Source of the DNA: Raillietiella orientalis
Lineage: Eukaryota
Length of the DNA stretch: 64,000 bases
Reading direction: 5' to 3'
NCBI GenBank assembly: GCA_036172245.1
Contig: JAYWIR010000058.1
Location: 620,001 to 684,000, forward strand
Both the position numbers and the translations under genes were made by a program. Below the pieces are notes generated by a model. It had not been told where the DNA came from. It worked only from the letters and a program-made list of their open reading frames with translations, and did not search any database. How positions within the stretch are numbered: the first letter of the stretch is position 1; each line of letters begins with the position of its first letter. Positions 17,443 through 58,495 of the stretch are shown here, in pieces.

Positions 17443-18255
17443 CGGAGAAAAAGTGGGGTGTACAGAGGGAGGTATTGCGAACGACATGGGGGCGATCGCC
17501 CTCCTGTCGGGAGGCCGTGAAGCCGATGGAAGACCACCCGTTGACTAATTCCAGGAGGATTTGGACGTTCAGACTGTCACGAGATAGAAGGAGCGGGACG
17601 GTGCATGGGATGCACACCCATCCCTCGCAAATACACGGGCGGGTGCAGCTCCTCCTTCCCCTCTCGTACTTGGGATGGAGCCCCATGTGCTCGTCGCTGA
17701 CTTCGCGGCGCCGGAGGTCGGCAAGCCGCTGTCACAAGGGAAGATCCCTTGAGAGGAAGATCATTTCCTGGACAAGTCCAGCCCCTTTTTCCTTCCCGGC
17801 TTCAGAGCGAGAAGTCATCCGATTTGACCATCAACCAGGAGAACGGTCTCGAGCAGGAAACAGCCCGACCACCCAGTTCCTCCAGGATGCTTGCTCCTCT
17901 GCCTACTACTCCGATCCACCTCGTTCTGGACAGCCCAGAGTCTTCGCCGCGTCCTGAAGGACCCTTAGACGCCCGCGGCGATTTCGTCCGCCCACCGGCA
18001 GCATGCAAGGGAGCTACAGGACTTCTCTGACCGAGTCCTTCATTCGAGATCCCCAATCCCTTCTTCCGCCTGCCAGCGGCTCCATCCTTGCTTTATACGC
18101 AGGAACGGTTCCTCCTCCCTCTTCTCGCTCTGTCCCGGACATGTCCGGGCAGTACCTGATGGGTTCCAGATGCAGCTTCCGGATGCTTCCCCGGTGTCGG
18201 TCTGTTGGTCACGCCGTCACTCCCTCCAGGGACAGACGAGCAGAATCAGGATGCG
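17443..18255 (+). repeat. ~810-bp repeat, copy 1 (inverted relative to 50692-51505)
   Basis: The reverse complement matches 50692-51505 almost base for base; ORF translations are near-identical (17475-17957+ vs 50991-51488-; 18003-18287+ vs 50661-50945-). Confidence 0.95.
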
Positions 18256-24563: not shown

Positions 24564-27235
24564 ATGTGGATACCTGCAAGCAACCACGCATTACTGCTGC
24601 GTGGGTTGGCAAGGAGCTGTCGTCGTTCTTGTGGAAGAATGGTAAGCTGGAAGCGTCATAATGGTGAACTCGTAAATTGATTTTGCTACTGATGAAAAGA
24701 ATGTACTTTCGAATGTACTGTAACAAATTTCTCAAAGTTGTTAAATAACTTTTTTTGTGTGTAGAATTGTCGAGAAAACATGAATCCAAGAGAGCGACTG
24801 CGAATTTCGCAAGTTAATGTAAATTTTTTTATGCACAGAATTCTAAGTTAAGGCCTTATTTAGCTGGGCAGGTTATTTTGTATGTTTGTCTTTTTTACGT
24901 GTGGTCATTCATGATTTTGTCTTCACGTTACATGTAATGTGTGTGAGAATCGTTTGTTGACATTTGTTGTGATGGAGAGTCAACGGTTTTCGTGTTTAGC
25001 CCCGGATCAGACACGAAACCAAATTCCTTATGATGTGGTTAAATCAGCGGTATTACCAAAAAAAAGCGATAGTAAAAGCATTCAATAAAAGCCCAGATTT
25101 CCGGCAATTATTACGTTTTAGTAATTTGATGCGGTGAAAACTGGATCGCTGAGTGCTTGTGTAACTTTCTAACTCAATCTCTTAAAATTAAAAAGCATTT
25201 ATCGGCGGTAAATTATTTTTCATGAGTTTTTTAAAATAGACATGGTTCAGCATGGCATATAGGTATCGAAAGAGATATGAATGTATTGAAGGAACCTTTT
25301 GTGCCCAGGAACATACACTCTTACTGGATAATCTTACTGGATTCTTATATTGGTTTAAGAAAAAATGATATGAATGCACACAGAGCAATAGTTGCAAATT
25401 TTTTCCTCGGTTTTCTTTGTTCTTAATAAAGATTGCTTTTGTGCACAAATACATAATTTTGCAAAGAATGATGACTGGTAGCATATGTTATGTTGGACAA
25501 AGCTAAAAAATTCCCTGTGTAGCAAAGATGAAAACAGCAGTGTCAGTTTGCGAGTTTGGTTAGCCAATGAACATAGTTTTGAAGGCTTTCATTGGCGTGT
25601 AGAATTTTTGCGTGCAGTTCATAGCAAGATTTTACATTTCTATTGATTATTAATGAATTCTGACCATACCTTTTGATTTATATCTCAGTTGCTTTTTTTA
25701 TTCGCTGTTATATTGTATTCAGTGCCGGGTTTGTGTATTTTAATTCATTAGTGGATGCAAAACTGTGGAGTAAACATGCATTTCTTTCTAACATGTTTAA
25801 CAGTGATGATTTTCATTCCCAGGCTGAGCAAGCCATTCTTTATTATCATATCATTCCGTTTCTAAGAATCAGTTGGCATTTGTAGGGCAGAAATCTCTAA
25901 TCATTACTCCATATTACATTGATAAGTTCACTTACATATTTTTGCCAATGCAACAAAGCTTAGCATTGAGGTATCATAATGTGATCCAAATTGATATTGT
26001 CATTGCGCTATGGCACTGTAAATTCATTTTTTAATTTATACTGCATTTGTTTTACTTCAAAAATAAAAAAGTGAACTTGTTTTTTTCACATATTTTGCAT
26101 TGAAAGGTAGATCAAGTTGTATCCCATCAGATAGGATCGATAACATTATTGTAGACCAATTTTTTCGAAAGGAAGGAATTTCCTACCTTCTACACTTGAT
26201 TTGTGATCAGAACATAGTTTCCCATAAAATCTGAATGTTTCCACCAGTGGTTGCTTGCATAACCACCAATAATTGCATCATGGATGTGTTTGTAGGTGTT
26301 TTTTGTCACATTAATAATAGTTTTTGTTACTTATGTAAATACGCAAACTAGGGATCTCTCACTCTGTTTGAAAACATTTTAGTCTGTGAACAAAATGAAC
26401 TGAATATAGAAATGATGGCTGAAATTTAGGGATATTATTACTAACTTTGGGAGTGGAAAATGTATTCATTTCTTCAAATTTAAGTGCCAATGCCAAACTA
26501 TTTAGTTTTCCCTTGATGCATATCTGTTTAAATAATGTGCGTCTTTTGTTTTTCAGGCCCATTCAGAAGTGGATTATAAGAAAGCTTCATCTATTTATGA
26601 ATTCTCTGCTAAAGACATTGATGGAAATCTTGTTTCCTTAGAGAAATATAGGTTTGGTTCAGTTCGATATACAATTAACATTCTAAATACAATTGAATTT
26701 GTAGGGGCCATGTAGCAGTAGTGGTGAATGTTGCTTCCAAATGAGGCAAAACCAGAGTCAATTACACCCAGCTAGTGCAACTTTATGAAAGATATTCCAA
26801 CATGCAAAGTGTTCCCGGACTGAGAATTCTTGCATTCCCTTGCAATCAGTTCGGAAATCAAGAGCCAGGTACAAATGAAGAAATCAAGCAGTTTGCCATT
26901 GGATATGGTGTAAAGTTTGATATGTTTGCCAAGATTGATGTTAATGGAAGCAGTGCTCATCCTCTTTGGAAATATCTCAAGGAAAAACAGCCTGGCACTT
27001 TGGGAAAGTATGAATTACCTTATAGGAATATTTTTATTTATGTTTTCTCATTTGGGGGCATAGTTTCATCAAATGGAACTTCACAAAATTTTTGATTAAC
27101 AAAGAAGGCATCCCAGTTGCACGATATGGGCCAAATGTTGACCCATTGGTAAGTTTTTTGGTTGCACTTAATTTTTATTGACGCAAATTTTAGGGTATGG
27201 AACTAGATATTAAGAAGTATCTGCAGTCCAACTAA
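24564..27235 (+). CDS. GPX4: Phospholipid-hydroperoxide glutathione peroxidase (GPx4/PHGPx), selenoprotein, 200 aa with N-terminal leader
   Basis: Exons 24564-24641, 26557-26651, 26705-27007, 27064-27148, 27194-27235; all GT-AG with consistent phases. Protein contains [40 protein letters not shown] (TGA 26742-26744), [22 protein letters not shown] and [14 protein letters not shown]. Exon1 is less certain than exons 2-5. Confidence 0.95.
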
Positions 27236-27257: not shown

Positions 27258-27320
27258 AGCTGATTGAATGATGATTTTGTTACAAATTCATAGAAATAGC
27301 AAAATCGGAAGTGTTCAGCT
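27258..27320 (+). promoter_or_regulatory. SECIS element (type II, AUGA core) in the GPx4 3' UTR
   Basis: Lower stem agctga/tcagct; core ATGA 27268-27271 opposite GGAA 27307-27310; 10-bp helix gattttgtta/tagcaaaatc; unpaired AAA 27284-27286; mini-stem ttc-ata-gaa. AATAAA downstream at 27383 and 27526. Confidence 0.9.
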
Positions 27321-29500: not shown

Positions 29501-30673
29501 TTTTTTTGCTCGCTACATGAACGCGCCTGTTGAACTGCTGCTGACAGAACCTGAAGATCATTCGGTAAGGAAGGTGCTAAGTCTGCAGCTACGCGCTAGT
29601 GTTTGGTACCACTGTGTCGGATTCCCAAGAGGCGCTGTGCTGCTGAAGTGCACGATTTCTCATCTGCAGGATCTATCCTTTCTCTCACCGAGTAGAGAGC
29701 AAGCCTTCAAGTGCCATCAGCACGGGTGACACGCATATGATGGTCCGACGATCACGACGGGACCAAGAAGAAAATTGAGCTGACTAAGGAACCGGATGCG
29801 AGAGTAGTGGCTTGAGAAGACCGGCACTTGAAGATGGCAAGCGCAAGAGATCAGGATCGGGTCGTTCATTTCCACCAGCCTGGGACAGCCCTGGTTCCTG
29901 AAGCAACAGGATACTTTTTGTGTATTGCCCTTTCCGTCTTTATCCGGCGAACGAGAGACCCTTACCACTGGAACGATGTGTTGGTCCCAGATTTGGAAAC
30001 GGAGGTAGCCAGAGATATTTGAAAATCCCAGAACCCCCTTCCCGGCCGTCCCTTTTTTCCCTGATGTAATGAACTCCAGGGAAGAGTCGTTTCAAGAAGT
30101 TCTTGACGGAAGAGGGGAACGAGTTTTCTCAGCAGAAAATCAATATTAAACCTCTCCAGATGTGGAACTATGAGGACGAACCGGGCCAGGAAGAAAAGAC
30201 ATCGAAAGGAAACGAAACTTCCTGATGGGATGAGACTCAACCGAGGAAGAGCGTGAAGGAACGAAGAAGAGGTTGACTTTCAGTTGAGGAACACGTAATG
30301 TGAGTGAAGTGTGAAGGCAATGAAGGGTTTCGGTTCCATCTGGACTGCCTGTTGCAAAACGGCAGGGCGATCAGGGTGAAGGCCTGAAACTCTCCGGGAA
30401 CAAGGAAAACCCACTCTATCTACGCGGAGTCTTGCCCTTTCTCCCCCTCTCCTTCTGGGAAGAATCAGTGGAAGCCACGGCTTTCTGGCATAACGGCGAG
30501 AGTAGGTCACTATGGAGACATAGCCGACGGCTTTTGTTATTATTTCTTCTCTTTTCTCTCATTTCCAACGTCGCGGTGTCGTGCATCGTGAACATCTACC
30601 AAAGGTACACGAATTCAAGAATCTCTTCTCTCCGTCTTACTAGCAGCATCCCTTTTCCCTGCCTGTTGGACGC

Positions 30674-31316
30674 ATGGATGTTCTGAGAGGGAAGATTCTG
30701 GTGACCCCGCTCAACTCGTCGCTGAAAGCCGAGGACCTCCTTGAAAGGGTTGACGTTTTGGGCTACTACTTCTCGGCCTACTGGTGCCCTCCTTGCAGGG
30801 ATTTCACTCCTATCCTCAAGGATTTTCACGAGGTGGGCTCTCTAGTGCCGAACGGGTAGGGGGTGGGTAAAGATATCATGTTGGTGGGGAGAGCAGGGGT
30901 GAGAGAGACCTTTGGAACGTCTTCCTCCAGATCTAGCCACAGATCACGCCACCATCGCACCCTTTTGTTTTCCTTTTTTCCAGGAACTTCGCAAGCAGGC
31001 TCTTCCCTTTGACATCCTCTTCGTGTCCTCCGATTCCTCTCCTTACGAGATGGCCGCCTACATGCAAGAGTCTCACGGGAGCTGGTGCGCGGTGCCCTGG
31101 GCCGATCCGCTCTGCAAGTAAGAGAAACATGGCTCTGGTTCTCACTTTCTCCTCCTCCATTCCCTCCGCACCACAAGGGACCTGAAGAACCGCTACGACG
31201 TGAGGGGCATCCCTTCACTGGTTGTGGTCAAGAAGGATGGTCGACTGGTTACGAAGGATGGTCGAGGAGACGTCCGGAGGTTCGGCCTGCGGGCCTTCGA
31301 GACCTGGAGAAAATGA
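30674..31316 (+). CDS. Nucleoredoxin-like / tryparedoxin-type single-domain thioredoxin, 143 aa
   Basis: Exons 30674-30832, 30984-31117, 31178-31316. Motifs [41 protein letters not shown] and [17 protein letters not shown] are typical of the TryX/NRX/RdCVF-like family. Confidence 0.93.
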
Positions 31317-37543: not shown

Positions 37544-38479
37544 ATGGCAAATACGTTGGTGACAATTAAAAGAAAATCTGAATGTCAGCCTCCTGAAACA
37601 ATTCTGTTGACTTATAAGAGAAAAAGATTAGATCCGTCTAATGATGAAGAATTTGAAATTGCGTCAACAGTCTTGAGGTTTGCTGGTACAATAGAAAGCA
37701 AAGTGAGTAAAATAAATCAGATGCTGGCATGTTGAAAATGCAAATTTGTTCATTCCAAATAGGATACAGAGTTTCAACCAAACTTGGAAGATCTGAATGA
37801 TAACTTAAAGAAAGTTGGTGTACCAAGCTTGAGTAAAAGTAGTTGTTCCAAACTTAACTTCAAACGGAAAAGAATCGAAGAAATGCCTTTTGTAAGTAGT
37901 GCTTTCTTTTTCATTCACCTCATTTCATTCAGATTCTTAAGAAGCAAATCAGAAGTGACTGTTCTTCAGATGACAGCTCTAAACATTTGACATTATTTGA
38001 TATCATACCTAATGGAGATAGTGAAGGTACAAAAAGTCATTCATCAGAATTTACCATCACTTGTAATGACATGCAGCCACTGGTCACATATTCTTATGAT
38101 CTTTATTGGGTCACACCACATCCTACTTCTGGTAGTCTAGAGGAAACATTTGAGGAGTTCAGGTGTGTAATTTGAAGATATTGCCCTTTTATGGTTATAA
38201 GCATTTGCTATGGTTAGAGAGGTGCCTGCAGCACTATCTGAAGTTTTATTGGATCATGATGAAGAGGAAGAAGTTGATGATGATGAAGATTCCAATGCAG
38301 AGAATCATTGGCGCAATGAATATCCAGACACAGACACTGGTTCTTCATTCAATTCTAGATCTGATACTTCATATTTTGGCTATACTGGTAGTGATTTGGA
38401 TTGGCAATCTGGAGGTTCTGATTCTTCACAAGATATGCACGAAATTGACCATATGCGCAATAAGTTAAGAAGATTATAG
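37544..38479 (+). CDS. SLC7A6OS: Probable RNA polymerase II nuclear-import factor Iwr1/SLC7A6OS, ~259 aa
   Basis: Exons 37544-37702, 37763-37891, 37933-38162, 38218-38479, GT-AG and phase-consistent. N-terminal LVTIKRK...KRKR...LRFAGT, central ITCN...YDLY, and the Iwr1 signature DDDEDSNAENHWRNEYPD. Confidence 0.88.
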
Positions 38480-43100: not shown

Positions 43101-46100
43101 GTTGTCACCCGGTCACGCCGGCGCGTTTATTATAAACAAACAATTGCAGTATAAGGCCCCTCTGCGACCAATAAAACAAGGGATCTGCCGGGTCGTCGGT
43201 GCGCAGACCGACTTGACTCTCCACGGCAGCGGAGGGGGATGGGGAAAAACAAAAATAAAAATAAAAGAAAACTGAAAAAATCAAAAACCATAGTTCTTTG
43301 GAGGGTCGGGAAGGGATCACTGTACGCTTTGTGGAGTTTCCATCCTTTGCAGGATGCCGACAAGGTCCTTCTGCATATTTCCCAGGTGGGGCCATCGGAA
43401 TGCATTTGCAGAAAACGAGCTGCATACTCCATGACATCCCTGTAAATTGCATCTTCTACTTCGTCGGATCCACTCCAAGCCGCCACAATACCGCGGATGC
43501 AGCTGAGCGCTGCTACGACAGCGGCTGGCTGCAGGGCGTCCCGCACGAAGAGGAGCCAAAAACGTTTCTAGGAGGGCTACATTCCAGGATCCCTAGGGTC
43601 GTACCAAAAGGTTCCCAAAGGAGCCGGAGGGTAACACAGTCAACTAAGAGGTGCGGGAGGGATTCCCGTTCCCCGCACCTAACACAGTTTGGATTCACTC
43701 GTCCCCGTGTCCAGTGGTAGCGGCGCGCGTTGCAGGGGAGTCCTCAGTGCAACAGCATAAGCGCCGGCTCCTGCCACTTTAGGGGAAGGATTCTTCTTCC
43801 GGTTATCACTGGGGGCCACTTCAGGTCATCCATCGAGATGCCGAGCAGCTCGCCCCATTTCTTCAGTCCTCGCGGAAGGACGCTCTGGGTCGTGGAGTCC
43901 TCCAGCTGTTCCATGGTCCAACCGCTCATCAACTTTTCTCTGCCTGCGATACGGCAAGAGACTTGCCACCTCGGCGTCCTGCTGCTAACGAGTGCCCTTC
44001 GTAGGAAGGGCAGCACCGTTGCTAGGCAGGTCGTCTCTGTCCACGTGTCCTGGCTGGACACTCCAGGATCTCGCGAAAAGTGTAGCGGGCGTATCGGCCG
44101 CGTCGCAGGCTATTCCATATCTCGTGGCTCCTCTCATTCACTACCGCCCACGTGCCAACTGTTTCTTCCCGCCATGTGCTGGAGTTGACGGGGCTGCAGA
44201 TCATCTACCCCTTCTCCTTCGTCAGAGTGGATATTCGTCTGAGGAGAAGACCGCATCTTCTTATCTTCCTTCCACGACATAAAAGATGAGATGCAAGTCC
44301 TTCCGTTCCGGACACACGTCTGGCGAGGAGGCGGGCCGGAACACACCAAGGGATGCTCCACAACTTCGGTGCGATGGCCAAGGTGCGCCATCGCAGCTGT
44401 ATTTCCACGCGCTCCAGCGTCAGGAGGCTAAGACCACCTTCCCGACGCGGGGCTCACAAGTCCTTCAGAGGCACTCGGAGCCTCCCCTTGCCCCAAAGGG
44501 CGATGCGGAGGAGGTCCTTGGTCCTCTTCTTTACTACGACGGGGACAGGGCAAACGAAAAGTAGGGGGCGCAGGATGGGGGCCGCAAACGTATTCCAAAC
44601 CGCGGTCCGTTCCGGCAAGTGAAACTTGCCTTCCAGGAACGGGCCGATCGCTGACTCCATTTCTGGAGACGACCTGACCAGGCTTCTGACTGGCAGAAGT
44701 CCCCCATCGCCAAAGTACTTTAAGTACCTCTCCGTCGGGATCCCCAGGCGGATACAGTCAGGCCATCCTGCCCACGTTGCACCAACCGCTACCAGCGACG
44801 ACTTCGTCCTGTACACCCGTAGTCCTGTCCCACGGCTCAGCAAGTCGAAGAAATTCTCGACTGCCGAAGCCATGGGCAGCAGGAGTAGAAGATCGTCAGC
44901 ATACGCCGACACGGCCGGCGTACCGGGGCACGAGCTCGGCAGGGCAGCCAATGTCACCCTGTATGCTCTCAGCACCAGTTCGAAATAGGTGCTAAAGAGC
45001 AGGGTTACTCAGGCTGTTGCCCTGCCGGATGCCGCGCCTTTCCGGCACGCCGGACACGTTTTGTTCTCTGAAAGAAACGGTGATTATCGCATTGCGCCAG
45101 CAGGAGCGCAGGTAGGCCGTTAAGGCGGCCGGGAAGCCCATGCGATCCAGGAGCTCCAACAGGAGATCCTGGTCCACGCTTTATGCAAATCGACTGTGAT
45201 CGCTAGAGCCCTCTTCCTTACCCGGTCGTCCCTTCCCTGCCCCGCTGGCGCCCCAAATCAGGGTTGCCGACAATTTCGTTTTTTCTTACTTTCTTCCCTT
45301 TCCACATGGAACCATGTGCTGGCGGGGAACAGGTTTGCTTCCATGCTTCGCCCGGGAACAGCATGTGTTCCGGGCTAATGAAGCTGTCCGCTACCTGTAC
45401 CAGCCGCGCAGCCCACAGTCCAGCCAGCAATTTGGCATCCGTGTTCACAATCGTGATCGGACGCCAGTTGCTTAATTTACGGAGGTCTCCTCCCTTCGGA
45501 AGGAGCCCCACCCTGGCTGACCGAGACGGGAACATAGCCTTCGTCTCAGATGAGCCGTGTCAACTCGAGCACCAGGGGGGTCAGCTCTGCGGTGAAGCCC
45601 TGAAAGAACTCCGCCGGCAGGACATCCTCCCCTGGCGCCTTACGCTTCTTGAGCCTTTTAATCGCGGTGATGATTTCACTGGTCGTAAAAGGCTCGTCCA
45701 AGCAATCTTTCTCCTCCCCTATTGCCGGGGCTCCATCTGGAAGCAGGAGCCGCAAGGCATCCCACTCCGCAGGTGCCCTGGTGTCCCTGCACGAGGCGAC
45801 GTATCGATGCAGGGTCCGAGTGTTCCTGGTCCAAGTCGTCCAGCACGCTGGGCGGCCCGGTTTGCCAGGCTTGACGCTCGGCCCCGGCTTTGTACTCGGC
45901 CAAGCGACGGACGTTAGGGGTCCTCGCGTAACGACGGGCGTGCAAATATGCTCTTTCGTTGCGGGACCCCTCACCAAATCCCCGGGGCAGGCGGTGCAGA
46001 GGGAATTCCTCGCAGAACTCGCGGACCGAAACCTTCATGCGGTCCCAGTCGGCGAGATTCCGGAGGGTGATGCCTCTCAGGAATTGGCGGAGATGATCCG

Positions 46101-46574: not shown

Positions 46575-50095
<3,521 letters not shown>

Positions 50096-50691
50096 GTTTG
50101 ACTATTTTATTACTAAAATTTAATTTAACAATAAATATCCCGCATTATCAAGTGAAAACCCTGCATCTAATGGGAGCTGGCGTGGATTCCAAGGAAGGTG
50201 ACCTCGGGATTCGTCCTGTATCACGTGGACCAGTCTCGATAGCCCAGCCTGATTGCACGAGTAATGATGTTTCCTGAACGCCTCTTCCCTCTTTTCAGTC
50301 ATGGAGGAACTTCTTCCTGAAATCTTCCCCTCTCCTTCTTCCCTTTCTTTATCTGGTGACTCTGAAGCGCCGGCCTTTAGAGGTCCCTGAGCTGGGACAT
50401 CGTCACAGCCGAGCAACGGGGAAGGGGACACTCGCGCAGAAGCTCGACCAGGTAACGGTGGGAGGGAAAGGAGGGAGAAGACGGGGATTCGATGAACGAA
50501 AAGGTCCTGTCTCTCTCCTGTCCTCCCCTCCACCCTTCCGAGTCCGCGACCCACAAATCTGTGAGCGGCAGGTAGCATAGAAAGAAGGGACGAACACAGC
50601 GACCTCAGCAGTGTGGGAATTTTGGATCCCCCCTTACGCAGAAAAGGAAGAGTCTGCGTACTATAGCAGCAGCAGCGAGTGAGTGACAATC

Positions 50692-51505
50692 GCACACCCG
50701 TTTTGCTCGTCCTTCCACGGAGGGAGTGACGGCGTGACCGACAGAATCCGACACCAGGGAAGCATCCGGAGGCTGCAGCTGGAATCCATCAGGTACTGCA
50801 CGGACATATCCGGGACAGAGCGAGAAGAGGGAGGAGGAGCCATTCCTGCGTATAAAGCAAGGATGGAGCCGCTGGCAGGCGGAAGAAGGGATTGGGGATC
50901 TCGAATGAAGGACTCGGTCAGAGAGGTCCTGTAGCTCCCTTGCATGCTGCCGGTGGGCGGACGAAATCGCCGCGGGCGTCTAAGGGTCCTTCAGAACGCG
51001 GCGAAGACTCTGGGCTGTCCAGAACGAGGTGGATCGGAGTAGTAGGCAGAGGAGCAAGCATCCTGGAGGAACTGGGTGGTCGGGCTGTTTCCTGCTCGAG
51101 ACCGTTCTCCTGGTTGATGGTCAAATCGGATGACTTCTCGCTCTGAAGCCGGGAAGGAAAAAGGGGCTGGACTTGTCCAGGAAATGATCTTCCTCTCGAA
51201 GGATCTTCCCTTGTGACAGCGGCTTGCCGACCTCTGGCGCCGCGAAGTCAGCGACGAGGACATGGGGCTCCATCCCAAGTACGAGAGGGGAAGGAGGAGC
51301 TGCACCCGCCCGTGTATTTGCGAGGGATGGGTGTGCATCCCATGCGCCGTCCCGCTCCTTCTATCTCGTGACAGTCTGAACGTCCAAATCCTCCTGGAAT
51401 TAGTCAACGGGTGGTCTTCCATCGGCTTCACGGCCTCCCGACAGGAGGGCGATCGCCCCCACGTCGTTCTCAACAGCTCCCTCCGCACACCCCACTTTTT
51501 CTCCG
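50692..51505 (-). repeat. ~810-bp repeat, copy 2 (inverted relative to 17443-18255)
   Basis: Direct sequence comparison with copy 1 shows only scattered substitutions, denser at the ends. Confidence 0.95.
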
Positions 51506-51866: not shown

Positions 51867-51928
51867 CCTTGTCCTCTTCAGAAACACACCTTTATCTTCC
51901 TTTTCCGGTGAGTTCCTTCACGCCAAGG
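51867..51928 (-). promoter_or_regulatory. Candidate SECIS element with GUGA core in the 3' UTR of the divergent GPx paralogue
   Basis: Minus strand reads ccttg gc GTGAA ggaactcacc gg AAAA ggaagataaa ggtgtgtttc TGAA gagga caagg. Lower stem ccttg/caagg, tandem G.A core, 10-bp helix with one U.U mismatch, apical A-run. AATACA variant signal at 51786-51791. Confidence 0.75.
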
Positions 51929-51959
51929 TGATTCCGTGGACGGTCTACGCCCTACCCCC

Positions 51960-53028
51960 TCAGACCCCGAAGATGTCTCTCTCAATCATCTGAAACGGGA
52001 GTGAGGAGGATAGAATCCTCCACATCAGGAAGGGGAAGAAGAAAGGGTCTGGACTTACCAGTGGATTGGTGCCCGCGCTGTAAAACGCTACAGGGACGCC
52101 GAGCCTGTTGACCAGCAGCAAGAGCGAGTCCCATCTCTGAAAGCTATGGGGAAAAACAGAGGAGAAAATAAAAAAAGATATGGGATCAGACCACAGAAAA
52201 AGGAGGAACAACACCTTCCTACCTGCTGAGGAAGCCAGGGATCCTGCTGTCCACGAACTTCCAGAGAGGGTGCACGGTATCCTGGTCCAGGTTCGCCTGC
52301 GAGAAAAGATCCAACTCCCTCCCGGAGCGAGGAACTCCAGGACGCAGCCGCTCGAAATCTTGGCTGGACGGATCGCAGGGGAAGGCGAGGACGTGCAGAT
52401 TCTTCATGCATGCGTACTTTCCTCCGAGATGCCGCAGCTGAGTGTAGTTGACCTTGTCTTGACCTCAGGAGGAAGGGATACCCATAAGGATCGCGTGGTC
52501 CCTGGAATTGAAGATGAAGGAGAAAAGGCAGGTAGGCACAGGGGAAAGCAACGCGTCTTTAGTTCCCTTTCCTTCCTTTACCCTCCTTTTTCGAGGATAC
52601 CCACCTGTACTTATCCAGTGCTGCCAGGTTTCCATTCAGGTCCTTAAGGGCAAAGTCATACACCGTGGTTGCTACCCGCCAGTCAATGTCCGATTGGAAC
52701 GTCATCTGAGAAGGCAACAGTGATAACTAAACCCAAATCCAGGAGAGGGGATGGAGAGGATGGACCTCTGTCCATGAGCCCCCTTGCCCACTTTGGTCCG
52801 GTCTCTACCGGAGACAAAAGACCGGGTAAAGCACCGCTGCTTCATCTCGAGATCCCTTTTCCTACTCACTCGCTTTCATACTGCCTTCCCTGCCCCTCTT
52901 TACCTTGGCTACGGAAAGGGCGCCATTTGCGCTTCCCGTAGCCATCTCCAACGTTTTCCAGGGAACAGAGCACTCACCATGCCCAGGAGGTAATAGAGCA
53001 GCGAACCCGTCCATCCCAGCACCGCCAT
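51960..53028 (-). CDS. Divergent GPx4-like glutathione peroxidase paralogue, putative selenoprotein (U63), 181 aa, hydrophobic N-terminus
   Basis: Exons (minus) 53028-52978, 52705-52605, 52501-52223, 52143-52059, 51989-51960, with the same intron positions and phases as the GPx4 gene (85-nt exon 4 in both). Sequence: DWRVATTVYDFALKDLNGNLAALDKYRDHAILMGIPSS-U-GQDKVNYTQL (TGA 52467-52465), VLAFPC, HPLWKFV, QRWDSLLLLVNRLGVPV. No frameshift is needed. Confidence 0.87.
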
Positions 53029-53054: not shown

Positions 53055-53950
53055 ACTCTCGGGGCTTATATGAGGCCCACGATATCTCAAGAACTTTGTC
53101 ACTCCCCGTGGAGGCATTCTGGGTGCATGCAACCTCGCGAGAGCATGAGAAGAAACCGGAGCTCGCCTCTCGACCGATTCGAGGAGCGCCCTCCCGCTTC
53201 CTCTATAAAGGTGGCCGCCTGCTCGCCCCTCGACCTTTGGAAGCAGAAGTAATTCACCCGAGATAAATACGGGTCGAGTGCCTCGACCCTGTCTCGGTTG
53301 CCGAGATCCACCCGTGCAACTCGTCAGATCCCTGCTTGGCGATGCTCGGCGGCGCAGGGCCTTCGCCGTCCGAGTGCGCTTGCACTCTATGCTGGATCCC
53401 CTGGACAAGGGGAGAAACCAGCTCTCTGCAGAGCCAAAAGTTCGAGCCGAGGAGGGCGTTTCTTCCTCGACGGGACCCTTGGTCCCATCCCAAGGTTCCC
53501 CGAAATCAAACAGTAGATCGCCCTGAATCGGATCGCCTTCCAGAGCAGCAGGTGAGGTGTCACTTTCGCAGCGTCTCTTCTGGCTGGTGTCCAGACCCTT
53601 ATTCTGCCCTCTCTTATCGACCTCGCTCACTCCGCTTCCCCGTCGATCCAGAAACGATCCCCTAAGTCCTCAGTTTTTCCCCCACTCTCGCAGGAATCTC
53701 CCCGTTTACATACTCTGCTTTTCCCCCACCTGGAGGAGGGTTACCATAGGCGATCGATTCCTCGGAACACCCTGAGAACGGGTCCTTGTGGACTCCTCAT
53801 CCCACTTCCTCAAAGGGAGAAAGTGATGGAGAAGGATAGAGGCAGGAATCGTTGGTGTCTGAGCTCTGCGACCAGTAGGATCTCCCAAGAGCCCAGTCTC
53901 CACCCTCACCCACTTCCTCCACGAGCTGGAGTTCAGAAAGTGATCCTACA
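53055..53950 (-). mobile_element. Decayed LINE ORF1/endonuclease remnant immediately upstream of the GPx paralogue
   Basis: RVETGLLG....TIPASI (ORF1-like, 53706-53909), then DLGNRDRVEALDPYLSRVNYFCFQ ... DIVGLI*AP (cf. GL.N..K....L...D..CLQE ... IN.YAP). Confidence 0.35.
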
Positions 53951-57769: not shown

Positions 57770-58495
57770 GAGGGTGGAAGCAGGGGCAGGGAAACGGGTC
57801 TCCCTCAAGTGGCGAGAGTCGGCGTGCTTGATGTTCTATTGATGCTTCCCATGCAAAGCATGCCGACATCATTGGAGGGAGGTTGAACCTGAACAGTTGC
57901 AAGTGCGGAGAAAGAGAATCACTCTCGAATCTACTTGTGGACTGTGTTGTCCTCCTGCCCCTATAAGAACGTTTCACTTCGACCCTAAGCATCCCGGTTG
58001 GCAACCCCAGGGACGTTTTTAAACTCCTCTTCGCGCGAGATGCCCTGCAGCCTGCATCCCACTTAGCAGCTCTTTGCTGCATCCGCGGGATTGTGGCGTC
58101 CTGGAGCGAAGCCGATAGAGCACAAGGCAGAAGGGACACTATCCAATTCGTTATTCGCTTTCTGCAGATAGCAGGCCAGATAGTACCACCTGAGTAGCAT
58201 GCAAATGGAACTTGTTGGATCCTAGAAAGGATGCAGAGGACACCTCCAAGCAGATTGTGACCCCGTTCTGTACCCTCCACTTTGTTTTCTTATTCATTTT
58301 TATTTAATTCTTATTTTATTATTTTTGCTTTTTCGTTTGCTCCTCTCTCTGCTGCCAAGGCGAGCTCGCTAGTTTTGTACCAGCACCTTGGCAGGTTCCT
58401 TGTGTATATGAGCGTGGTAGGACCAAGGGTCCTACCAATACCTTTGGAAGTTCATTGTTCATTCAATAAACTTCCCGTAGTGAATGGGTGATAAT
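57770..58495 (+). mobile_element. 5'-truncated LINE 3' end (ORF2 C-terminus plus 3' UTR)
   Basis: CKCGERESLSNLLVDCV and RDALQPASHLAALCCIRGIVASWS match the 43.1-43.7 kb element (CVRCGERESLPHLLVDCV; RDALQPAAVVAALSCIRGIVAAWS); AATAAA at 58465-58470. Confidence 0.85.

Follow-up and report, generated by a model that had tools for sequence, protein, structure and literature searches.

Can a selenoprotein gene have about half of the near-invariant residues of its family replaced and still be maintained as a gene? This question is raised by a locus in Raillietiella orientalis, in a stretch of 64,000 nucleotides (nt) of contig JAYWIR010000058.1 (GenBank assembly GCA_036172245.1, positions 620,001 to 684,000 of the forward strand). 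The whole of this stretch is called the window here, and all coordinates refer to it. The window contains a canonical GPx4 gene with a selenocysteine (Sec) codon on the plus strand and, on the minus strand, a strongly diverged relative of this gene, which we call the candidate. Our analysis shows that, as far as the DNA itself can tell, selection has maintained the candidate as a protein-coding gene, followed by a hairpin shaped like a selenocysteine insertion sequence (SECIS) element. The reading that we prefer, to which we assign an even chance, goes further: the candidate would be an intact, lineage-specific duplicate of the Sec-encoding GPx4, maintained by selection as a spliced selenoprotein gene with a remodelled active site.

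Gene structure of the candidate

The model of the candidate extends over 53028..51960 on the minus strand and consists of five exons that total 546 nt and remain in frame. Its parts, together with the two elements that flank it, are as follows.

53028-52978, minus strand: putative exon 1, 17 codons beginning with the ATG at 53028-53026 and encoding an uncharged hydrophobic leader
52705-52605, minus strand: exon 2, 101 nt with an in-frame ATG at its start, encoding the ..VYDF..KDL.G..L.KY(R) strands of the GPx fold; located by tblastn and by alignment with the neighbouring GPx4
52501-52223, minus strand: exon 3, 279 nt, with the Sec codon, VNYTQL, L.VLAFPC and HPLWK
52467-52465, minus strand: TGA at the Sec position, in frame within GIPSS-U-GQD and aligned with the Sec TGA of the neighbour
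52143-52059, minus strand: exon 4, 85 nt, with RWDSLLLL where the neighbour has KWNFTKFL
51989-51960, minus strand: exon 5, ending in the stop codon TGA at 51962-51960
51931-51864, minus strand: SECIS-like hairpin, with GUGA at 51921-51918 facing UGAA at 51880-51877, and with helix I beneath them
53065..53070, minus strand: TATA-like hexamer TATAAG, read from the sequence, which starts 42 nt upstream of the ATG

A first-pass annotation of this DNA had proposed a frameshift-free gene of five exons. Its coordinates were borne out, on the minus strand, and the TGA that it had placed at the Sec position does align with that of the neighbour. All four introns have GT..AG boundaries. The donors of introns 1 to 4 are GTGAGT, GTGGGT, GTAGGA and GTAAGT, and the acceptors are all pyrimidine-rich and end in AG (..TCTCAG, ..TTCCAG, ..CCATAG and ..TTTCAG). 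The Sec TGA aside, no premature stop, frameshift or splice-site loss was found in the 181 codons and eight splice-site dinucleotides of the model.

The predicted product has approximately 181 residues, or 164 if the ATG that opens exon 2 is the start codon. Exon 1 as modelled is plausible. An in-frame TAG lies four codons before its ATG with no other ATG between them, the ATG has A at position -3 and G at +4, the donor is strong, and the GC content of the exon at third codon positions (GC3) is 0.82 over 17 codons. The hydrophobic leader formed by the 17 residues of this putative exon is best regarded as a family trait rather than as evidence of the secretion or membrane targeting that had been suggested, because hydrophobic N-terminal leaders are usual in ordinary GPx4 homologues. 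Such leaders were common among the homologue N-termini collected here and are also found in passages of PMC2679728.

Origin by duplication of GPx4

The other GPx4 gene has the following structure.

26557..27235, plus strand: canonical Sec-encoding GPx4 (the neighbour), with exons 26557-26651, 26705-27007, 27064-27148 and 27194-27235 and the Sec TGA at 26742-26744
27258..27320, plus strand: SECIS element of the neighbour, AUGA type (Rfam SECIS_1 31.7 bits, E = 1.4e-4; SECIS_5 30.6 bits)

This gene sits in AT-rich DNA, and tblastn with the candidate model identified it as the sole other GPx gene in the window. By sequence comparison it is an ordinary metazoan GPx4: 4016 of the 4098 candidates retrieved with its exon are related at E<=1e-10, the best of them unnamed proteins with 74% identity, and its identity to named arthropod, chicken and sea-anemone entries is 66-69%. 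A tblastn search with 99 homologue N-termini returned nothing significant in the window for its first exon.

The two genes have a common structure. Three introns of the candidate have a counterpart in the neighbour, with the same phases (2, 2, 0) and the same aligned positions, the boundary between exons 2 and 3 falling after KYR in phase 2 in both genes. Exon 4 measures 85 nt in each, and exon 3 is shorter in the candidate by eight codons (279 vs. 303 nt), as had been claimed. The earlier claim of shared intron phases therefore stands for these three introns and does not extend to intron 1, for which there is no counterpart to compare, the first exon of the neighbour not having been found in the window.

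Homology extends over four consecutive exons in order and phase, and tblastn with the candidate model gave E values of 2e-82 for the candidate's own locus and 1.6e-23 for that of the neighbour. The third exons of the two genes are 33% identical, and that of the candidate scores 26.5 bits on the Pfam family GSHPx (PF00255), for which the cutoff is 27; the neighbour's exon scores 121.5 bits. Exons 2 and 4, searched singly, had no Pfam match. The best solved-structure matches of exon 3 are GPX4 chains in the PDB (E ~4e-10).

For a phylogeny we assembled 154 proteins, including the two encoded by the window exons. Among the other 152, the 121 with 150-260 residues were kept and 31 were dropped, and the resulting alignment had 123 rows. 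The tree was computed on 55 rows, namely both window proteins, the length-passing hits to the candidate and every third of the rest. In this tree (IQ-TREE) the candidate is the sister of the GPx4 of the window, with a support of 87 in the Shimodaira-Hasegawa-like approximate likelihood ratio test (SH-aLRT). The terminal branches measure 3.57 changes per site for the candidate and 0.15 for the neighbour, an approximately 24-fold difference, and the length of the former makes its placement less certain. The aligned sequences, the tree and the PDB matches agree with the earlier description of the candidate as a GPx4 paralogue, and we conclude from them that it is a lineage-specific GPx4 duplicate that shares a common origin with the neighbour.

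An exhaustive HMMER search with exon 3 among 1.84 billion cluster representatives returned 33 hits at E<=1e-3 (best 2.8e-8, none at 1e-10), all of which are ordinary distant GPx proteins with 25-46% identity. A word-indexed search with the same exon for longer proteins produced 33 candidates, none at E<=1e-3. Among 214 pattern matches in metagenome contigs, one was returned as 'confirmed', and its translation proved to be a chance match of 10 residues in a frame that does not encode a GPx. No orthologue of the candidate was found in these protein-cluster and metagenome searches.

Selection versus neutral decay

An open reading frame (ORF) by itself means little at this locus, where the candidate stretch contains at least three overlapping open frames of 150-190 codons and many ORFs of at least 170 codons occur in all GC-rich parts of the window. 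The case for selection therefore has to be made from the pattern of change. Over 158 aligned codons, the candidate and the neighbour are 39% identical in amino acids, and their nucleotide identity at codon positions 1, 2 and 3 is 0.52, 0.665 and 0.30, respectively. At 39 of the 62 identical residues the two genes use different codons. With the third position at 0.30 and 39 of these 62 codons different, silent sites are near randomised, at a protein identity that still stands at 39%. Coding indels relative to the neighbour are all multiples of three, whereas intron lengths vary freely.

Base composition also distinguishes the exons from their surroundings. The GC content of the candidate at the three codon positions is 0.57, 0.40 and 0.73, whereas its introns have 0.505 and the flanking DNA stays at 0.50-0.58 whatever the frame, and GC3 lies between 0.64 and 0.82 across all five exons. 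Other exons in GC-rich parts of the window have the same profile (GC3 of 0.71 in a nucleoredoxin (NXN)-like exon and 0.84 in a Su(H) TIG exon), whereas genes in the AT-rich parts have a low GC3 (0.36 in GPx4 and 0.23 in an Iwr1-like exon). Dead DNA is expected to relax toward the local GC content of 0.5-0.55 at all three positions.

Neutral decay was simulated from the codons of the neighbour under a GC-shifting model of substitutions only, with 400 runs per setting. At 36-44% identity the simulated copies carried 4.3-5.0 premature stops; the probability of no stop was 0.5-1.25%, and the probability that the TGA was kept was 0.24-0.32. A gap between the identities at positions 2 and 1 as large as the real one arose in <=0.5% of runs. 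On a family profile built from the 121 GPx4-like homologues, the spliced candidate scored 114.0 bits and the neighbour 313.5 bits. In 220 simulations of neutral decay to an identity of 0.36-0.42, the scores were 55.2 +/- 15.6 bits and none of the 220 reached 114, although simulated stops were scored as X, which slightly lowers the simulated scores. Moreover, the candidate retained 48% of the residues in alignment columns with an entropy <0.5 and 24-35% of those in columns with an entropy >1.5 (permutation p = 0.014).

Taken together, the codon-position, composition, simulation, profile and retention results reject neutral decay for most of the time since the copy arose. The selection on this locus that had been proposed earlier is thus supported by the open frame, the splice sites and the codon-position pattern, and also by the compensatory changes in the hairpin that are described below. 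However, this evidence against neutral decay does not amount to normal GPx constraint, as judged from the 26 of 53 near-invariant columns that are kept.

Part of the divergence is compositional, to judge from the direction of the substitutions. Changes from AT to GC dominate at position 3 (weak to strong 74/104 vs. strong to weak 15/54) and at position 1 (37/83 vs. 20/75), and no such dominance is found at position 2 (26/106 vs. 17/52). The share of the residues F, Y, M, I, N and K (FYMINK) is 35% in the neighbour and 23% in the candidate, and several key replacements, for example Asn to Asp, can be read in the codons as single A-to-G steps.

The hairpin downstream of the stop codon

As folded by RNAfold, the hairpin at 51931-51864 consists of helix I, an internal loop in which GUGA faces UGAA, a helix II of ten positions with nine pairs, and an A-rich apical loop of 16 nt that begins GGAAAA, with its AAAA toward the 5' side. 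The core motifs start 32 and 38 nt past the stop codons in the two genes. The shape and the place of a SECIS-like hairpin after the stop, as noted in the first-pass annotation, were thus recovered. Recognition as a SECIS element by Rfam was not: in searches of 16 kilobases (kb), 291 nt and 83 nt, no Rfam SECIS model matched the candidate hairpin at E<=10, whereas the element of the neighbour was found by the same kind of search with 31.7 bits.

We also searched both strands of the window (128,000 nt) with a pattern that requires [AG]TGA, N, ten positions with at least nine pairs, AA among the five bases that open the loop, N-GA and a 4-bp helix I. It had exactly two hits, the SECIS element of the neighbour and the candidate hairpin, and three hits in total in 40 block shuffles (mean 0.075), a rarity that is overstated because the pattern was composed after both hairpins were known. 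Relaxed patterns gave 3, 5 and 7 hits. A second SECIS-like hit on the minus strand near 50041, with an ATGA core and 8 of 10 pairs, had no Rfam SECIS match and was dropped; it lies approximately 1.9 kb downstream of the candidate stop, between hexamers of the poly(A) type.

Helix II was also compared between the two genes. Seven of its ten pairs have changed on both sides yet remain paired, one is unchanged, one has changed on one side, and one is broken. With silent sites saturated, a helix that is rewritten but still paired has the appearance expected of a structure under selection.

Rewritten motifs and the catalytic tetrad

The motif changes reported earlier are present. NVASKU has been replaced (17 protein letters of this series are not shown here), a further motif has become FPCDPSSQDFE, and WNFTKF has become WDSLLL. 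The neighbour keeps all 53 near-invariant GPx columns and the candidate 26 of them. What the candidate keeps is mostly the hydrophobic fold core, plus Sec and Trp, and what it has lost is mostly polar residues around the active site, with NVAS, GKT, NQFG.QEP and NFTKF rewritten.

The catalytic tetrad of GPX4 consists of Sec46, Gln81, Trp136 and Asn137 (passages in PMC7869902). In the candidate, the peroxidatic residue of the ..S-x-U/C-G.. loop is present as the aligned TGA, and the Trp is kept, RWDS being aligned with KWNF. The Asn has become Asp, as previously stated (the aligned codon is GAC in place of AAC). The Gln had been described as displaced by one residue, which does not agree with our alignment. 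The Gln site, two residues past the cysteine of FPC, holds Pro, or Asp under another gap placement, and the nearest Gln lies three residues downstream, in a segment where the alignment is ambiguous. To our knowledge, in every described GPx the Sec is accompanied by the Gln/Trp/Asn environment, which is held to confer its extreme reactivity. Tosatto and colleagues reportedly found in 2008 that mutation of the tetrad Asn, to Asp included, lowers GPx rate constants by orders of magnitude.

AlphaFold2 was applied to the exon-3 fragment only, with an alignment of 86 rows, and returned a mean predicted local distance difference test (pLDDT) score of 67.1. The model has the strand-helix-strand order of a GPx with a late helix at HPLWK, and as a prediction of one fragment it neither supports nor excludes a working pocket.

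Discussion

The history that we propose begins with a copy of the neighbouring Sec-GPx4 that was relocated into a GC-rich compartment. After this relocation, silent sites and first codon positions would have shifted strongly from AT to GC. The candidate would have changed approximately 24 times as much as its parent, and all the while selection would have preserved it as a selenoprotein gene that can be spliced and translated. Its mRNA would be made and spliced as modelled, and the GUGA-type hairpin would recruit the Sec insertion machinery, so that the UGA is read as Sec. The product would have the thioredoxin/GPx fold, possibly with a hydrophobic leader, and the selenol would still be its reactive centre. 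It would most likely no longer be an efficient peroxidase that uses glutathione (GSH) and lipid hydroperoxides, because the Asn has become Asp, the Gln site holds Pro, and the motifs NVAS, GKT, NQFG.QEP and NFTKF have not been preserved. More probably, it would act slowly as a peroxidase, or its selenol would serve a thiol oxidoreductase or a sensor that works with another partner. The more specific proposal is that the candidate is a Sec enzyme or sensor of GPx fold that has been neofunctionalised, having kept Sec and SECIS but dropped the tetrad Gln and Asn together with most substrate-side motifs. Its chemistry or partner would then be unlike that of any described GPx, and its uncharged hydrophobic leader might direct it into the secretory pathway or to a membrane. 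This proposal is in our opinion a tentative one and rather unlikely to hold in full.

Several results weigh against an intact, selected gene, and most of them favour the alternative that survives best, namely that the copy was selected for a long time and is now silent or non-functional, without a visible lesion yet. Promoter activity could have been lost, the SECIS could have been weakened by the A-to-G change in its core, or the active site could have been crippled. We consider such a dying duplicate possible but somewhat improbable. In its favour, the terminal branch is 24 times that of the parent, a difference that strongly relaxed constraint fits as well as a new function does, and 27 of the 53 near-invariant columns are replaced, the tetrad Asn and Gln positions among them. 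No Rfam SECIS model matches the hairpin. The exhaustive search revealed no relative of exon 3 above 46% identity. Neither AATAAA nor ATTAAA occurs on the minus strand from the candidate stop to 50124, a distance of approximately 1.8 kb, and one arm of an 805-bp inverted repeat starts within this stretch, 455 nt downstream of the stop. In invertebrates, GPx gene clusters can include members that are incomplete or lack a SECIS (passages in PMC3473315). Four further points reduce the weight of evidence used above. The minimum free energy of the hairpin is -22.2 kcal/mol (z = -1.37), and 20 of 200 shuffled sequences fold as well; the SECIS pattern was written with both hairpins in view; in the decay simulations the neighbour stands in for the ancestor under a simple substitution model; and in the AlphaFold2 model the pLDDT is approximately 50 across the rewritten NQFG.QEP/helix segment after FPC (<50 at residues 57-60).

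However, a dying duplicate would have to be reconciled with a gene that has no stop, frameshift or splice-site loss. Its GC3 of 0.73, compared with 0.50 in the introns, would relax toward the local 0.5-0.55, its hairpin retains all SECIS-defining elements with compensatory pairs, and its profile score is far above that of neutral decay. Therefore, any silent period would be short relative to the age of the duplicate.

A second alternative is that the product is an ordinary but weaker peroxidase that depends on GSH or thioredoxin, altered by GC-biased fixation in a GC-rich and probably highly recombining compartment and used in a sub-function or in particular tissues, without a new function. 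The dominance of AT-to-GC changes at positions 3 and 1, the fall of FYMINK residues from 35% to 23%, the single A-to-G steps behind key replacements, and the retention of Sec, Trp and the fold core are what it would lead us to expect. However, the lack of an AT-to-GC bias at position 2 means that many replacements are not compositional, and mutation of the tetrad Asn, if the reported effect applies here, would lower the rate constants. We therefore regard this explanation as distinctly unlikely. That the candidate is a chance frame in stop-poor GC-rich DNA, gene-like only in appearance, is extremely improbable. The several overlapping open frames of 150-190 codons found here and the ORFs of at least 170 codons in all GC-rich parts would make an open frame cheap, but the idea is refuted by homology over four consecutive exons, the PDB GPX4 matches at E ~4e-10 and the profile score of 114 bits.

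Window context

The window is a compositional mosaic with 33-39% GC at 22-29 and 34-41 kb and 52-64% GC elsewhere, and the GC3 of genes follows the compartments (0.23-0.36 where the DNA is AT-rich, 0.71-0.84 where it is GC-rich). The following features lie outside the two GPx4 genes.

17443-18245 and 50701-51505: pair of 805-bp inverted repeats, 96% identical, bracketing a 32.5-kb segment that contains the canonical GPx4; perhaps a transposon end or a segmental inversion
30644-30856, plus strand: WCPPC thioredoxin-like exon of the nucleoredoxin/tryparedoxin type (Pfam Thioredoxin_8, 28.5 bits), in a GC-richer island amid AT-rich stretches
38201-38476, plus strand: Iwr1/SLC7A6OS-like exon (Pfam Iwr1, 38 bits), with no relative in the word-indexed protein search
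43245-43784 and 57802-58332: old inverted repeat pair, 65-68% identity
44404-44923 and 48322-48844: old inverted repeat pair in the same range of identity
43516-43743, minus strand: weak zf-RVT match, a retroelement trace near these repeats
44457-45008, minus strand: YADD-like ORF without a Pfam hit, a second such trace
47580-48176, minus strand: well-conserved exon for a TIG domain of Su(H)/RBPJ (Pfam TIG_SUH, 49.5 bits), approximately 4 kb from the candidate and on the same strand
50441-50548: long near-perfect hairpin with many weak matches to microRNA precursors on both strands (best MIR1507, 24.8 bits, E = 0.07, far below the gathering threshold), probably a palindromic repeat

No mirrored copy of the gene was found past the 17443-18245 arm of the 805-bp repeat pair. 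No other Su(H) domains were found among ORFs of at least 45 codons between 43 and 50.8 kb. We also considered whether the GC-rich flank has merely accumulated the remains of dead genes, and rejected this idea because the Su(H) TIG and NXN-like exons are well conserved and have a normal coding composition.

Comparison with known systems

In a narrow literature search on the tetrad and on duplication, we found no description of a GPx copy in which half of the invariant residues of the family, including two tetrad positions, are replaced and yet Sec and a hairpin of SECIS type persist. If selection keeps the UGA and the SECIS without the tetrad, the candidate would be a natural experiment on Sec in a GPx fold and on the change of function after duplication. 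If it is silent, it would document the last stage before the visible decay of a selenoprotein duplicate. It is also a warning for annotation. With exon 3 just below the Pfam threshold, an in-frame TGA and a putative SECIS missed by Rfam, pipelines could skip such a gene, even those that are aware of selenoproteins.

Compared with GPx4 in general, the candidate has the same motifs of the fold core, namely VYDF, KD..G, KYR, VNYTQL, LAFPC, HPLWK, W and G.PV..Y. With its neighbour it also shares the Sec position, three intron positions and phases, and a SECIS-type hairpin approximately 30-40 nt after the stop. It differs from the neighbour in that it is only 39% identical, keeps 26 of 53 columns, and has a shorter exon 3, GUGA instead of AUGA, and a GC3 of 0.73 instead of 0.36.

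The core of its hairpin resembles SECIS elements of other animals. The 'class II GTGA_AA_GA' core of Schistosoma japonicum SjGPx1 (passages in PMC2679728) and the GTGA_AA_GA cores of 12 of 21 sponge SECIS elements (passages in PMC3473315) have the same G, the same AA in the loop and the same GA in the 3' strand. In this window, however, the G before UGA is derived, because the parental gene uses AUGA.

Lineage-specific duplicates of the Sec-encoding GPX4 are known as GPX4b in ray-finned fishes, GPX4c in lampreys and GPX4a2 in salmonids (passages in PMC13134290). The candidate is likewise an extra Sec-encoding GPX4 copy that would have arisen by duplication in one lineage. However, those copies are reported in the same passages as regular, clade-wide members, whereas for the candidate no orthologue was found and the active site is rewritten. 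Incomplete or SECIS-less GPx duplicates of invertebrates, such as Nv.Gpx_i (passages in PMC3473315), resemble it as duplicates near an intact GPx that drift from the family pattern. Unlike these, the candidate is intact in its frame and splice sites, and both its Sec codon and a hairpin shaped like a SECIS are preserved.

GPx7 and GPx8, finally, are protein disulphide isomerase (PDI) peroxidases of the GPx4 clade that are targeted to the endoplasmic reticulum. They have a hydrophobic N-terminal segment and a changed reducing partner, with Cys at the peroxidatic position, and they keep the Gln, Trp and Asn. The candidate would represent the opposite pattern, in which the Sec is kept and the Gln and Asn are lost.

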